Origin: Scenedesmus sp. PABB004
Taxonomy: Eukaryota
Assembly (NCBI GenBank): GCA_014905635.1
Contig: JABVCE010000003.1
Span: 310,001 to 374,000, forward strand
Length of the DNA stretch: 64,000 nt
Direction: 5' to 3'
Shown in pieces: positions 1,419 to 16,414 of this stretch (position 1 is its first letter; each line of letters opens with the position of its first letter). Under the pieces are notes generated by a model. That model was not told the DNA's origin. It saw only the letters and a program-made list of their open reading frames with translations, and ran no database searches. The position numbers and the translations under genes are program-made.

Positions 1419-1751
1419 GCAGTGGCGGCGCGGTGTCGGCACTTTGCACGTCCGGCGTCGTAACCCGCGCCGGCGTGTGACCGCGTGGCGCCCCCGCCAC
1501 TGGCGAGCAAGCAGGCTCAGCAGGGCGGTCCCGATCCGCTGCCGGCCGACACCGCCGCCGCTGCGGAGCCCCGACCGTTGCGCCGCCGCCGCTGTCGCCG
1601 CGGCCTGGCTGCCCGCCCGCCCGGCCCTCGAGCCGGCAGTCCACACGCCCGTCGTCGACACGCACACGCGCACGCCAGCGCTCGCCCGCCGGCGCGTTGG
1701 AGGGGCCGTCGCTGCTGCTGCTCCCGCGCTCGCGCGGGGCGGGTGGGCAAG

Positions 1752-4700
1752 CTGGGCTGTGCGGGCTCCAAGGAGGCTGATCGCGAGCCCGTCGGGAGCA
1801 GCGACGCGTGCGTGTGCCACGGGCCGCGCTCGCGCCCGCCGACTGGCGCCCACGCGCCCCGGATCGGCCGCGCCGCCCGGCCCCGGCTCGCGGCCCGGCT
1901 CCTGGCGCGGCCTGAGCGCGCGGGCTGAGCGCGGCCCGCTGCCTCGCCCGCGCGCAGGTCAGCACCAGCACCCGGCGCCAAGGGGCAGCAGCCCGCTGGG
2001 CAGGCGCCCGCTGCTGCTGCCCTCCCTGCGGGGCAGCAAGCGGCGGGCCTAGGTGCGCGGACAGCCGCGCCAACGGGGGCGGCCGCGCCCGGGAGGGGTG
2101 TGCATGCTTCTGCGCTCGCCCACCGCCCCCGCGCGCGAGCGGGGCCCCCTGCGCCCGTGCCGACGCGCCCCCCGCCGCCCGCGCGCAGGTACCACACCAT
2201 GCCGCGAGGACAGCTTCAGCCGGCAGCTCGCGGCGCTCGCGCCGCTCGCGGCGGCGCAGCAGCAGCAGCAGCGGGCGGGCGGCGAGGGCAGCCACCGGGG
2301 CGGCGAGGGCAGCAACCGGGGCGTGCACCGCGCCGGCAGCGCTGAGTACGGGCCCGGGCCGTACAGCGTCGCGTCGTACGATGACACGCACGGCACCGAC
2401 AGCGCGGCGTCGACGCCGCGCTCGCGGTCGAGCTGGGCGCCGTCGCACGGCAGCCACCAGCCGCCCTCCAGGTGGGGCGCGCGCGGGGAGGGTCTGGCCC
2501 GCTGCCGGACACGGTCGCGTGCACCGCCCGCGGCGGTGCCGCGGGGCGCCCCCTCGCGGGGGGCCGCCGCTCGCGCGCGCCGCCGCGCGCCCGCGCTCAG
2601 TCGCGCGCGCCCGCCCGCCCGCCCTGCGCGGCACCAGGGGCGCGTCGGCGTCTGGCGCGGCGGAGATGCGCTCCGCGAGCGGCGGCAAGCTGCGGCGGCC
2701 GCCGCGCGCGACCAGCAGCGGGCTGCGCAGCGCGCTGCTGGGGGAGCACATGCAGCCGAGCTTCACCGACAGCGTGACCAACACAACCAACAGCAGCGAG
2801 GCGTCACCGCGGAGAGGGTGCGCGCGCGGCGCTGCGGGAGTCGGGCGGCCGGGCCTCCCGCCGTGAGCTGCGCGGCCGGCCCCGCCCCGCGGCGCTGCGC
2901 TGCACTGATCGCGCGCCGCGCCGCTCTCTCTCCTGCCGCCGCGCAGGGGCCAGGGCGAGGGCGAGCGGGACGGGGGCGACCGCGACTGGTTCCGCAGCGG
3001 CAGCGGCCTGCTGGACAGCGGCAGCCACCCGCTGCCGCGGCTGAACAGCGACGACCCCGGCGGCGCCGCGCGGCGCCTGGGCAGCTTTGGCCAGCACTCT
3101 GGCGACGGCGACGGCGCGTCGGCGTACGGTGACGGCGCGTCGACGTTTGGCGGCAGCAGCGTGACGGGCGGCTTTGGCGGCCTGCGCGCGCACAGCATGA
3201 CGAGCGCGAGCACGGCGCACGGGCGGCGGCACAGCCTCGAGCCGCACACCGCGGGCAAGATGTCGCTGCTGCAGCTGCAGCGCGCGATCGAGAAGATCAT
3301 GGTCAGCGACGGCGAGATGTACGCCAAGCTCCAGGCGGGGCTCAAGGGCATCCACAGCCTCGCGCGCGAGACCGACCGCCTGCGCGTCGCGCGCGACGTG
3401 ACCGGCGCGACGTGCATCAACCAGTACGTCGTGGTCAAGACGCTCGGGCGCGGGAGCTACGGCAAGGTCAAGCTCTGCCTCAACACGCTCGACGGCTCGC
3501 TCTACGCCATCAAGATGATGAACCGCTCGTGCCTGCTGCGCACGCTGCAGCGCCCCGGGCGCGCAGGGCTGCGCAAGCCGACGCGGCGCAGCATCAGCGC
3601 GGGCAGCGGCATCGGCACGCCGGGGCCGGCGCCCGCCGCGCCGCCGGCGCCGCCGGCGCGCGCCGAGGCGGACGAGGCGGGCGATGTCAACCGGGAGATC
3701 GCGATCCTCAAGAAGCTGGACCACCCCAACGTCGTCAAGCTCTACGAGGTGCGGCCGCGACTCGCGGCGCGGCGCGTGGGGGTGGTGCGCGCGCGGCGCT
3801 CACGCGCGCCCCGCCGCCGCCGCCACTGCCGCTGCTCCCCGCCAGGTGATCGACCCGCCCGGCAGCCAGTACATGATGCTGGTGATGGAGTTCCTGGAGA
3901 AGGGGCCCGTGCTGCAGGTGCGGGGGGGGGGGGGGCCTGCGCCGGCAGCGGCCGCGTGCCGCGCGCCGCCGCGCCGCCGCGCCGCCGCGCCGCCGCGCCG
4001 CCGCGCCCACTCCTCCGCCCGCGCCGCGCCCACGCCTCCGCGCCCTCCGCGCTGCGCTCGCCAGACGCTGGACCAGGCCGGCTTTGACTGCCTGCCCGAG
4101 GAGGTCGCGGCGGACTACTTCCGCCAGGCCGTGGCGGGGCTGGAGTACCTGCACTTCCACAAGGTCGTGCACGGCGACATCAAGCCCGAGAACCTGCTCG
4201 TCTCGAGCAACGGCGAGCTCAAGATCAGCGACTTTGGCTGCAGCCGCATGGCCGACGGCAAGAGCAGCCACACGCGGCTGAGCGGCACGCCCGCGTTCAC
4301 CGCGCCGGAGCTCGTGTCGGGCAACGCGGCCGACCCGTTTGCGGCCGACGTGTGGGCGCTGGGCGCGGTGCTCTACTGCTTCATCTACGGCCGCCTGCCC
4401 TTCCAGGGCGGCAGCGTGCTCGACGTGTTCAAGGCCATCACCGGCACGCCGCTCGCGCTGCCCGACGACACGCCGATCAGCCCCAGCCTGCGGCACCTCT
4501 TCGGCCGCCTCTTTGACAAGGACCCCGCCACGCGCATCACGCTGCAGGCGCGCGCGCGCGCGGCGGCGGCGCAGCGCTGCGCGCGGGGCGACGCGCGCGA
4601 CACAGCGCGCACAGCACGCACAGCGCGCGCCCGCCGACGCCCGCCCGCGCCGCCGACACCCGCCCGCGCCGCCGCGGCGCGCGCAGGAGGTCATGGCGCA

Positions 4701-5041
4701 CCCGTGGGTGACGGACGAGGGCCGCGTGCCGCTGCAGGCGTGCGCCGACATGGGGCTGGGGCTCATCGAGGTCACCGCGCAGGAGCAGCTCGGCGCGATC
4801 GACCGCGCGAGCGTGGTCAGCATGATCCGCGCGCGCCTCAAGGAGAAGGCCTTCCGCAACAGGGAGCACCTCTTCACGGTGGTGCGCGGCCCGCGCCGGC
4901 GCAGACAAACGCCCGCCCGCCGCCCCGCGCCCGCGCGCGCGCGCGCGCGCGCGCCGCGCGCGCCCGCGCGCCCGCCCGCCCGCCAACCCACCCGCGCCTC
5001 CGCCCTGCCTCCCTGCCTCTCCCTCTCCCTGCCTGCCTGCC

Positions 5042-5109
<68 letters not shown>

Positions 5110-6093
5110 GGCGCGCCGATGAACTGCGTCTACTTTGTGATGAGCGGCGTGGTCGAGATCACCAAGACCGCGACGCTCGATGACGCGGAGCGCGACGCGA
5201 GCGCGGGCGCGTCGATCGAGCAGAGCTTCACCGTCGACCTGGACGAGTCGCTCATGCTCGACTGCTCGCTCGCGGGCCTCGGCGCGGAGGGCCTCTTCCC
5301 GAGCGCCGCCGTCAACGGGCGGCTGCACATCGACCGCAGCAAGGCGCGCGACCTGCGCAGCCGGCAGCGCAGCTACCTGGTGGAGGGCAGCGAGGTGGTG
5401 ATCGACGTCAAGGGCCCCGGCCAGGTCGTGGGCGAGGTGTTCATGCAGGACACGCCGCCGCCGTGCCGCTACAGCGCGCGCGCGCGCGGCGAGGTGCTCG
5501 CGCTCAAGCTCACGCAGGAGAACTACGTGCGCGCGCTCGCGGCGATGTACTACGAGGCCGAGAACGGCGCGCGCGCGGTCGCGGCGAGCACGACGCCGAG
5601 CGGCCGCCCGCTGCCCGGGCCGAGCGCGAGCAGCCCGGGCCTGCTCGGGAGCGGGCTGACCGCGGCGCAGCGCGCCGCGCTCGTCGCCGGCGACGGCGCG
5701 GGCAGCAGCGCCGCCGCCGCGGCCGCGGGCGGCGGCGGCGCGCTCGCCGCGGCGCTCGCGGCGGGGCTGCTCGACGGCGGCGGCCCGCTCGGCGACGGCC
5801 TCGCGCCGCGCGGGGCGGGCGGGGACGGCCCCACGTCGGCGCCCATCCCCCGCGGCGCGAGCATCACCAGTCGCACGAGCGGCGTGAGCATGGACGACAG
5901 CACCTCCGCGCTCGCCGCGGGCCTGCACAGCAGCAGCGGCAGCCTCACGCGGCCCGCGCCGCGCAGCTCGAGCCGCCTCGGCAGCGCCGGGGAGGGGCCC
6001 GGCATGGACAGCGTGCCGCTGCACCTGCTGGCGGTGGGCTCGGACGCGGAGGAGGAGGAGGCGGCGGCGGCGGCGGCGGCGGGCACGGTGTGA
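1752..6093 (+). CDS. Ser/Thr kinase, CaMKK/GRIK(SnAK)-like, with C-terminal cyclic-nucleotide-binding-like domain (9 exons: 1752-1807, 1958-2052, 2189-2471, 2638-2817, 2947-3748, 3846-3917, 4065-4547, 4687-4881, 5110-6093)
   Basis: INQYVVVKTLGRGSYGKV, YAIK, HGDIKPEN, DFG, GTPAFTAPE, DVWALG; C-terminal HLFTVGAPMNCVYFVMSGVVEI...GPGQVVGE...YSARA. All intron phases are consistent. The start is an inferred CTG (see findings). Confidence 0.85.
5044..5107 (+). repeat. (CT)n microsatellite forming the pyrimidine tract of kinase intron 8
   Basis: Perfect CT run ending at the CAG acceptor (5109). Confidence 0.95.
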
Positions 6094-6185
6094 GCTCGAG
6101 CGCGCACGCGCCAGGGCGGGGCCACAGCGCTGTGGCGGGGGCGCAGGGCGCAGGGCGCAGCACGGGAACGGGTGTGTCGCGGCCT

Positions 6186-6186
<1 letters not shown>

Positions 6187-6277
<91 letters not shown>
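6187..6277. repeat. (GT)n microsatellite in kinase 3' UTR
   Basis: Perfect GT dinucleotide run. Confidence 0.95.
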
Positions 6278-6698: not shown

Positions 6699-6742
6699 TG
6701 TAACATTCCCCATCGCGTCGGCACATGCGGACACAGTTTACA
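6699..6742. terminator. Paired convergent UGUAA poly(A) signals (kinase + at 6699-6703; ClpP5 - at 6742-6738)
   Basis: TGTAA on + and TTACA 35 nt later, between two convergent genes. UGUAA is the known chlorophyte poly(A) signal. Confidence 0.65.
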
Positions 6743-14532: not shown

Positions 14533-16414
14533 ATGAGGAACGCCGCGCAGCGCGTGCTGGCCCAGGGCTGGCAGGCCGTGCAGTCCAGCGCGGCCGAGTT
14601 CTCCACCCGCGCCGCCAAGGAGCGCAAGGTGGCGGTGCTGGGCGCGGCGGGCGGCATCGGCCAGCCCCTGTCGCTGCTCATGAAGGTGCGGGCCCCGCAC
14701 GCCCCCGCGCCCGGCCCGGGGGGCGGCGCGCGCGTAATTGGAGCCGCGGCGCGGCCGGCGCGGCGCGCAGCGGCGTGGGCGGGGGCGGGCGGGCCCGATC
14801 TCGCCCCGCGCCGGGCCCCACGCGCGCCGCGGCGCCGCAGATGAACCCCCAAGTCACCCAGCTGTCGCTCTACGATGTTGCCAACACCAAGGGCGTGGCG
14901 GCGGACTGCAGCCACATCAACAGCAGCGCGCGCGTGGAGGTGCGTCTGCTGCTCGCGATGGAGAGCCCTCCCGCGCGCCGCCCGGCGCCGGCGCCCACGC
15001 CCGCCCGCCCGCCGCCGCGCAGGGCTTCGAGGGCGACGCGTCGCTGGCGGACGCGCTCAAGGGGTGCGACCTGGTTATCATCCCCGCCGGCGTGCCCCGC
15101 AAGCCCGGCATGACCCGCGACGACCTGTTCAAGGCGCGTGGCATGCCCGCCCGCCGCCGCGTCGCGGCGGGGGCGACGCCGGCCGCACCGGGGCGCCGGC
15201 GCGGCGGCCGTGCGCGGCCCGGCGCGGCGGCCGGCGCGCTGCGCGCCGCGCTGCGCGCCGCTCACGCCGGCGGCGGCCGCCCCCGCGCCGCGCTGTGCGC
15301 GCACGCGCAGATCAACGCCGGCATCGTCAAGGGCCTGGTGGAGGCGTGCGGCAAGCACTGCCCCGGCGCGATCCTGAACATCATCTCCAACCCCGTTAAC
15401 TCGACGGTGCCGATCGCGGCCGAGGCGCTGAAGCGCATGGGCGTGTACGACAAGCGCAAGCTCATGGGCGTCACCACGCTCGACGTCGTGCGCGCCAAGA
15501 CGTTCTACGCCGAGAAGCTCGGCCTCGACGTCGGCACCGTGGACGTGCCCGTCGTGGGCGGCCACGCCGGCATCACCATCCTGCCGCTCTTCTCCCAGGC
15601 GCGCGCACGCGCGCGCGCGCCCCGCGCCGTGCCGCCCGCCACGGCCGGCCGGCGGGCCGCCGCCCGCGAGCACCGCGCTCAGCGCCCCGCGCCGCCCGCC
15701 GCCGCACTGCCCGCGCGCGCGCAGGCGACGCCGACGATGCCGTCCAGCACCCCCGCGGACGTGATTGACGCGCTCACCAAGCGCACCCAGGACGGCGGCA
15801 CGGAGGTCGTCAACGCCAAGGCCGGCAAGGTGCGCGGCGGCGCGGCGGCGCGGCGGCGCGGCGGCGCGGCGGCGCGGCGGCGCGGCGGCGCGCAGCTGCT
15901 GGGGGCCACGGCGGCAGCTCGCGGTGGGCGGGGGAGCGAGCGGGGGTGTGGGGCCGCCCCCGACGCGCTGCGCGCGTCCCCCGCGCGCGCAGGGCTCCGC
16001 CACGCTGTCGATGGCGTACGCGGCGGCGCTGTTTGCGGACGCGTGCCTGCGCGGCATGAACGGCGCGACCGCGACCGAGTGCACGTTTGTGGAGAGCGAC
16101 GTCACCGACCTGCCCTTCTTCGCGACCAAGGTCAAGCTCGGCACCGAGGGTGAGCCGCGCCGCGCCGCGCCGCACGCGCGCGCCGCCGCCGCGCGGCGCG
16201 CCCGGGCGCCGCCCCTGCGGCGGCCGCGCCGCCGCCGCGCCGCGGCGCGCCCCGACCGGCCGCGCCGCGCCGCACACCGCGCGCGCGCGCAGGCGTGGAG
16301 GCCATCCACCCCGTCGGCAGCATGAGCGACTACGAGAAGGAGGTCTTTGCGACCATGTCGCCCGAGCTGCTGGCCTCCATCGAGAAGGGCATCAAGTTCG
16401 TCAAGGACAACTGA
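14533..16414 (+). CDS. MDH: Mitochondrial NAD-dependent malate dehydrogenase (7 exons)
   Basis: Presequence; [64 protein letters not shown]. Two GC donors (15134, 15599) are required by conserved sequence. Confidence 0.95.

Follow-up and report, generated by a model that had tools for sequence, protein, structure and literature searches.

Start codons and acylated N-termini in known systems

Several kinases, plant CDPKs among them, carry dual-acylated N-termini that begin with Met-Gly-Cys, and the longer isoform of the Src-family kinase HCK begins at a CUG codon. Here we analyzed a 64,000-nucleotide stretch of contig JABVCE010000003.1 of Scenedesmus sp. PABB004 (positions 310,001 to 374,000, forward strand; G+C about 78%), hereafter the window, in which a protein kinase gene appears to start at a CTG codon (1752-1754, plus strand) directly before a predicted Gly2-Cys3 acylation motif. 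In Src-family kinases such as HCK and LCK, myristoylation of Gly2 and palmitoylation of Cys3 give membrane attachment, and HCK has two in-frame starts and MGC acylation (part of PMC4599235). The algal kinase is similar in that Met-Gly-Cys-x-x-Ser/Cys-x is placed at the extreme N-terminus, here by prediction from the sequence. Unlike the Src family, it is a green-algal Ser/Thr kinase resembling CaMKK with a cNMP-binding domain, its proposed start codon is itself CTG, and nothing points to a sister isoform initiated at AUG.

The FAST protein NS22 of aquareovirus has a mutationally proven CUG start and the myristoylation consensus MGXXXS (part of PMC3135578). With NS22, as described there, the algal gene shares a CUG with a purine at -3 and G at +4 as the apparent sole start of an open reading frame (ORF) whose product opens with a myristoylation consensus. 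However, NS22 is a viral fusion protein made from a short viral mRNA and established by mutation, whereas the algal case concerns a cellular kinase and the evidence is comparative.

Known near-cognate starts also include the GUG of eIF4G2, the AUU of TEAD1 and the ACG of plant AGAMOUS. Such codons are mostly decoded as Met, and c-Myc and Pim-1 have CUG-initiated extensions with conserved near-cognate initiation (part of PMC13082882). Like genes of the c-Myc and Pim-1 type, the algal gene has a near-cognate codon in strong context and conserved coding sequence ahead of the first AUG. In most known cases the near-cognate codon extends an AUG-initiated form, whereas the algal CTG stands exactly at the ATG of its relatives and is apparently the only productive start; together with its conservation across genera and its recurrence, this seems to be the unusual aspect of the gene. 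Full-text searches on non-AUG initiation with myristoylation or with Chlamydomonas listed no algal kinase case.

In green algae, bicistronic nuclear mRNAs are read by leaky scanning, and few alternative starts upstream of the second ORF favour its translation (part of PMC11291117). The kinase gene lies behind a short gene encoding a WW and zinc-knuckle protein, and resembles such loci in that a short upstream ORF is arranged head-to-tail with a downstream ORF, the order is conserved, and no AUG was found in the window between the WW start and the CTG; both genes are here read from the DNA. Unlike in bicistronic loci, the spacer of a related metagenome locus (L003) contains ATGs, and the WW transcript contigs that were fetched are only about 1.1 kb.

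The candidate CTG start

The letters at 1748-1772 are CAAG CTG GGC TGT GCG GGC TCC AAG, as the earlier note had read them, and encode (K)LGCAGSK in a frame that stays open to 1807, where GTGCGT follows. The proposed initiation codon is homologous to the ATG position of relatives and has the context AAG CTG G (1749-1755), with A at -3 and G at +4; the CTG of a second locus, L002, likewise has a purine at -3 and G at +4 (GCC CTG G). The six residues behind the codon, GCAGSK (1755-1772), comprise Gly2, the predicted myristoylation site, Cys3 (codon TGT, 1758-1760), the predicted palmitoylation site, Ser6 and Lys7. The malate dehydrogenase gene at 14533, which the earlier note had used for comparison, indeed starts in the similar context gccaag-ATG.

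The plus strand contains no ATG from 686 to 2103, between ATGs at 683-685 and 2104-2106. This gap of 1,421 nucleotides is the longest on either strand of the window, followed by 1,149 on the plus and 1,210 on the minus strand, and the 404 plus-strand ATGs have a mean gap of 158. Within it lies the region 1419-1751, which is intergenic, has an in-frame TAA at 1461-1463 and presumably supplies the kinase with a short 5' leader. The pattern [ML]GC..S[KR] occurs only twice in the 127,996 six-frame codon positions of the window, once at the CTG. Because of the length of the gap and the rarity of the motif, we regard the LGCAGSK observation as real and not a chance match. The earlier statement that no ATG lies between a stop at 1418 and the CTG is correct as to the ATG, but that stop (1416-1418) belongs to the separate WW gene.

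After splicing, no in-frame ATG comes before 2666 in exon 4, far downstream as previously claimed: this ATG is 305 codons past the CTG and behind two out-of-frame ATGs, both in exon 3, at 2199 (48-codon ORF) and 2381 (76-codon ORF). Coding-like, conserved sequence (exons 1 and 3) precedes it, with the exception of exon 2. Exon 3 must be considered translated, because its G+C at third codon positions (GC3) is 89/93 and its protein has 59% identity (E 2.6e-15) to that of Tetradesmus obliquus. As this translated exon lies upstream of ATG 2666, a non-AUG start is needed unless an ATG at 2104, in intron 2, is used.

We scored codon usage with a log-likelihood ratio trained on exons 3-9 and the WW gene (1,168 codons) against introns. 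Exon 1 reached +18.9 bits over 18 codons in the CTG frame and was negative in the remaining two frames; this value was attained by 1 of 1,014 held-out non-coding windows of 18 codons, and 34% of in-frame coding windows score lower. The leader 1464-1751 gave -43.6 to -74.1 bits in the three frames (95-96 codons), with -74.1 in the CTG frame, and exon 3 gave +81.8 bits. In the CTG frame the score becomes positive around 1734-1743, no more than about 20 bases before the CTG; codon statistics alone therefore do not distinguish a GTG at 1743 from the CTG at 1752.

N-termini of related kinases

We compared 16 N-termini with a recognisable motif. At the position homologous to the CTG, Met was found in ten, Leu in four and Ala in two. 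The Met forms are L001, L003, Dunaliella tertiolecta, D. salina, Chlamydomonas eustigma, Haematococcus, Chlorella vulgaris, Nannochloris, one of the Pedinophyceae and a Trebouxia-like sequence. The protein starts as MGCFASKP in D. tertiolecta (from a transcriptome), MGCLASKP in D. salina and MGCLISVP in C. eustigma; the Met of Haematococcus (..MGCAGSKP) is internal to a doubtful gene model. The Leu forms are the window, L002 and two T. obliquus strains, and the Ala forms are Monoraphidium (AGCDVK) and P0012 (AGCDAP). The comparison proposed earlier, for a conserved CTG before GCxxS among chlorophytes, showed a CTG in the DNA of L002, Leu in T. obliquus, Met in the majority and Ala in the other two.

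For myristoylation we used the pattern G-{EDRKHPFYW}-x(2)-[STAGCN]-{P}, which we take to be PROSITE PS00008. GCAGSK of the window passes it, as do all ten Met forms and all four Leu forms, and neither of the two Ala forms passes. The Cys next to Gly2 is kept in the window, T. obliquus, L001, L002, Dunaliella and Haematococcus, and in L003 it is the fourth residue. Among the 262 kinases of more than 400 residues that were fetched, 50 begin with MG and 24 with MGC.

A scan of metagenome contigs with the kinase exon gave at least 600 pattern matches. Among the matches listed, 20 loci were confirmed, and the first exon is present in three of them. L001 reads ATG GGT TGT ACG CTC AGC AAA and has a TAG in frame three codons before the ATG, and L003 reads ATG GGC GGG TGC CTC TCG CGC. 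L002 reads gccgcc CTG GGT TGC GCG GGG TCA AGA CCA in DNA, i.e. LGCAGSRPAEEV, to be compared with MGCAGSKPSDVL of Haematococcus, and no in-frame ATG was found in L002 as far as a stop about 99 codons upstream of the CTG. In the window as in L001, L002 and L003, exon 1 is short (35-68 nucleotides) and has a phase-2 end. A further candidate, MGCTCDV at position 564 of L004, was rejected as a chance match, since it is too near the region before the kinase and does not fit S[KR].

T. obliquus reads ..AAVK-LGCISSKT.. in two assemblies; between the strains, two residues directly behind the motif vary and none inside it. Between the window and T. obliquus, five of five identities of exon 1 fall inside the first 7 of 19 residues (hypergeometric p = 0.0018). 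Both have Lys before the Leu, and through this shared codon the A at -3 is kept.

A quick IQ-TREE was computed from 21 rows, with the rows of the four loci filled to only 19-38%. It joined the window to T. obliquus (support 100) within a Sphaeropleales-like clade and placed L002 as the sister of L001, which has an ATG, within a Chlamydomonadales-like one (support 92). This comparison gives good support to the CTG occupying the ancestral start-codon position, and since L002 groups with L001 and the window with T. obliquus, the tree suggests at least two independent changes from ATG to CTG.

Two other models drew attention at their N-termini. The relative P0157 (EukProt, 2,209 residues) reads ..RRSVK-I-GCFQST.. 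near the annotated N-terminus, with Lys before an Ile and a motif-positive GC behind it; this Ile may be another near-cognate (AUH) start behind an invented N-terminal extension. In P0015 of Haematococcus lacustris, the annotated 282-residue extension before MGCAGSKP contains a duplicated RGRVVLVDEHRTSRVSS segment and looks like a mis-joined repeat or a transposon-derived ORF.

The kinase gene

The gene could be rebuilt as nine exons on the plus strand (1752-6093) that are in frame throughout. Exon 1 (1752-1807, 56 nucleotides) ends in the phase-2 donor GC|GTGCGT. Exon 2 (1958-2052) encodes a low-complexity Ala/Gln/Pro segment and links exon 1 to the frame of exon 3; its peptide in the required frame is similar to exon 2 of T. 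obliquus. Intron 2 (2053-2188) has canonical GT..AG ends and is spliced out in the deposited model. Exon 3 (2189-2471) is clearly coding and has no in-frame ATG, exon 4 (2638-2817) includes the ATG at 2666-2668, and exons 5-9 (2947-3748, 3846-3917, 4065-4547, 4687-4881 and 5110-6093) encode the kinase and cNMP-binding domains up to the stop codon at 6091-6093. The in-phase join of the CTG exon through exons 2-5, as the earlier note had it, was thus reproduced from the sequence. Skipping of exon 2 was considered and rejected, because exon 3 is out of frame when joined directly to exon 1, and use of an acceptor at 2214 would remove the conserved PCxEDSF.

The translation of exons 2-9 agrees at every residue with GenBank P0001, "GRIK2 [Scenedesmus sp. 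PABB004]" (1,198 residues). A protein search with the translated exon 2948-3748 gave 212 matches with E <= 0.001 from 8,000 candidates scored, with 100% identity to P0001. Pfam domains of P0001 are Pkinase (9e-59), cNMP_binding (2.2e-9), WW and zf-CCHC, and the pair Pkinase and cNMP_binding is also found in one chain in P0002 and P0014. Outside the algae, the kinase exon is matched best by animal CaMKK1/2, with about 40% identity across about 45% of the query. By these matches the protein is a kinase with a CaMKK/GRIK-like catalytic domain and a C-terminal cNMP-binding domain. The CaMKK1/2 matches, the deposited name GRIK2 and a Chlorella relative named CaMKK all relate it to CaMKK and to plant GRIK, which activates SnRK1; unlike these, it has the C-terminal cNMP-binding domain and a long disordered N-terminal region. 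The UniRef label "cGMP-dependent protein kinase" of some relatives is given because of the cNMP-binding domain. Exon 3 as query matched only 3 of 891 candidates, namely the protein of the window itself, that of T. obliquus and a single genomic ORF resembling T. obliquus.

Intron 7 (4548-4686) has a GC-AG boundary, CAG|GCGCGC, and the deposited protein requires this intron. Simple repeats include poly-G where intron 6 begins (about 3921-3931), a long (CT)n microsatellite immediately ahead of the acceptor of intron 8 (5035-5108) and, in the 3' untranslated region, a long stretch of (GT)n (6185-6275).

The upstream WW gene and the fused gene models

Upstream of the kinase, on the same strand, is a gene for a 168-residue protein with Pfam WW and zf-CCHC domains (exons 592-594, 680-745, 843-1152 and 1291-1418), ending with TGA at 1416-1418. 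The deposited P0001 begins at its ATG 592 and uses GTGAGC (1415-1420), which overlaps the TGA, as a donor joined to 1958; 1752-1807 is thereby omitted and the junction reads ..KVQWDKPTAA|SAPAPG...

Residues 1-168 of P0001 matched 75 shorter, stand-alone proteins (2,138 candidates). Near-full-length homologues have 147-185 residues and are spread across Chlorophyta; they include a 160-residue protein of Chlamydomonas reinhardtii and transcript-derived ORFs labelled complete (P0287, 154 residues; P0288, 147 residues). The T. obliquus-like ORF has 157 residues, on contigs of about 1.1 kb, and ends QWDRPTA. The aligned homologues terminate ..QW[DE][KR]PTA at the same point as the ORF of the window, with a short extension in Chlamydomonadales. 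As the WW ORF encodes a separate and widely conserved protein, the stop at 1416-1418 is real and the kinase needs its own start.

The two genes are head-to-tail in four Sphaeropleales-like taxa, namely the window, T. obliquus, Monoraphidium and L003 (7377-8490). L003 has a stop codon that closes the WW gene, followed 275 nucleotides further on by a separate ATG for the kinase. The genes are far apart in Gonium and C. eustigma, judged by locus tags.

Fused WW-kinase models are found in GenBank for Scenedesmus PABB004 (P0001), T. obliquus (P0122 and P0123) and Monoraphidium minutum (P0004). The fused T. obliquus models truncate the WW domain before its second Trp, and no two of the three T. obliquus models treat the junction alike, P0002 having an invented upstream Met instead. 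We consider that the public fused or extended kinase models probably arose as errors of annotation, owing to the absence of an ATG, and that the "GRIK2" model, which joins two genes and skips 1752-1807, is most likely such an artefact on the evidence of the homologous proteins and of L003.

A separate attempt to join the WW exon in frame to LGCAGSK, through an intron 1415-1507, was rejected because the bridged sequence has non-coding codon usage; the acceptor gggcaag|CTG that such a link could use is unlike the eight C-rich ..CAG|G/A acceptors of the kinase gene. The poly(A) signal TGTAA occurs four times on the plus strand of the window and not at all from the WW stop to 6699, too few to judge the 3' end of the WW gene. 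The TGTAA at 6699, about 600 nucleotides past the kinase stop, is likely a poly(A) signal, and most genes here seem to have no canonical green-algal signal.

Weighing of alternative explanations

We favour, with somewhat better than even confidence, that CUG 1752 is the start codon of the kinase and exposes a Gly2-Cys3 acylation motif behind it. This CUG start has good comparative support from the homology to MGC..S[KR] N-termini of relatives, the motif kept in the Leu forms, the phase of exon 1, the onset of coding signal and the separateness of the WW gene. Several points weigh against it. Obligate CUG initiation is generally inefficient and rare. The 16 N-termini were picked by hand as those with a recognisable motif, and P0003, P0005-P0011, P0013, P0017 and P0130 of Gonium were omitted for partial or unrecognisable N-termini. 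The Leu of T. obliquus was read from protein models only, and its codon was not seen in DNA. Exon 2 is non-coding-like in the required frame (GC3 20/31, -26.3 bits) and coding-like in the +1 frame (GC3 30/31, +9.4 bits), with a TAG of that frame exactly at the exon end. No unusual RNA hairpin was found past the CUG; the folded exons 1 and 2 are stable, but like shuffled sequences (z -0.2 to -0.7). Finally, an ATG at 2104 is in frame with exon 3, and CTG 1605 and GTG 1743 are in frame upstream, so that an extension is possible if they are transcribed. The earlier proposal of the CTG as start of an acylated kinase thus gains comparative support from homology, motif retention, phase and coding onset, but it had overlooked the ATG at 2104, and no sign was seen of the second isoform that its idea of a start-controlled isoform would call for.

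This ATG (2104-2106, plus strand) could be an ordinary start if transcription begins in or near intron 1-2, or if intron 2 is retained, such that MLLRSPTAPARERGPLRPCRRAPRRPRAG is joined to exon 3, exons 1 and 2 are absent or untranslated, and LGCAGSK is a relic. It is the first ATG past the long ATG-free stretch, no stop separates it from exon 3, and exon 2, in the frame it needs, resembles non-coding sequence. However, 2104-2188 is intron-like (-14.9 bits over 28 codons), the context tgc ATG C is poor with T at -3 and C at +4, the canonical intron is removed in the deposited model, and exon 1 has coding signal. A relic is also hard to reconcile with G, C, S and K being intact in Scenedesmus and Tetradesmus although the rest of exon 1 has fully diverged, and we consider a start at ATG 2104 unlikely. 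Rather improbable, too, is a non-AUG start upstream of the CTG, which would leave the Gly internal and unacylated behind an N-terminal extension. The frame is open over 1464-1752, CTG 1605 has G at both -3 and +4, and a 6-codon window from 1734 already scores positive; but the strongly negative score of the leader in that frame opposes it, and an extension would leave the conservation of the motif without a reason. GTG 1743 in particular has C at -3, and its product MGKLGC has Lys after Gly, which is excluded by the pattern we take for N-myristoyltransferase. Initiation at AUG 2666 after loss of the original start, with exons 1-3 as a long 5' leader, is very improbable: this AUG is in frame and T. 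obliquus has Met at the corresponding place (..GAGEMM..), but the two out-of-frame AUGs come first, and the GC3, codon score and conservation of exon 3 indicate coding sequence before it.

The deposited model may instead be right, with one WW-zinc-knuckle-kinase gene starting from ATG 592, a splice from 1414 to 1958, and 1752-1807 being intronic or an isoform-specific internal exon. Four GenBank models in three species fuse the two parts, their order is kept in four taxa including L003, and the GTGAGC at 1415 is a good donor with a phase equal to that of the exon 1 donor. Against this, the WW protein stands alone in 75 matches, complete transcript-derived ORFs included, and the T. obliquus-like ORF ends at QWDRPTA; the fused T. 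obliquus models lose the second Trp of the WW domain and disagree with one another at the junction; L003 has a WW gene with its own stop and a kinase with its own ATG-GGC-GGG-TGC; and the genes are apart in Gonium and C. eustigma. We therefore give a single gene quite a small chance. An assembly or sequencing error that hides a true ATG at 1752 would need a difference of a single base, and a region of 78% GC is hard to sequence. Nevertheless, this position is also Leu in the independently assembled L002 and in two assemblies of T. obliquus whose nearby sequence is not the same, and such an error is extremely improbable.

Proposed mechanism

With CUG 1752 as the start, the kinase mRNA would be scanned in a cap-dependent manner through a short AUG-free leader, and initiation would occur at the CUG in its good context, with the initiator tRNA reading CUG as Met. 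Methionine aminopeptidase would then remove the initiator Met, N-myristoyltransferase would acylate Gly2, and Cys3 would be palmitoylated next, so that the kinase may be tethered to the membrane as in its MGC..S[KR] relatives. The transcript structure, initiation site, decoding as Met and acylation are all inferred here. The CTG may have substituted an ancestral ATG in the common ancestor of Scenedesmus PABB004 and T. obliquus, and independently again in the lineage of L002.

We might further speculate that the swaps from ATG to CTG are a recurrent, selected setting of dose through start-codon stringency, and that the Sphaeropleales kinase is perhaps reached by leaky ribosomes on a bicistronic transcript shared with the WW gene; this is a tentative idea with a low probability. 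If such bicistronic reading were true, a small conserved WW protein would be translationally coupled to a membrane-anchored, cNMP-regulated, CaMKK-like kinase.

Significance

If the CUG start is correct, this would be a cellular gene with CUG as its only productive start, kept across two genera and arisen at least twice at one codon. It would explain the faulty public models of the kinase, both the WW fusions and the invented upstream start, and as an annotation rule, a near-cognate codon should be looked for before a conserved GC..S[KR]. The N-terminus behind the CUG would be functional only when the CUG is decoded as initiator, and green algae would thus offer, in this gene, a clean natural system for testing non-AUG initiation. 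The CUG start would also predict membrane anchoring of a cyclic-nucleotide-binding, CaMKK-like algal kinase.

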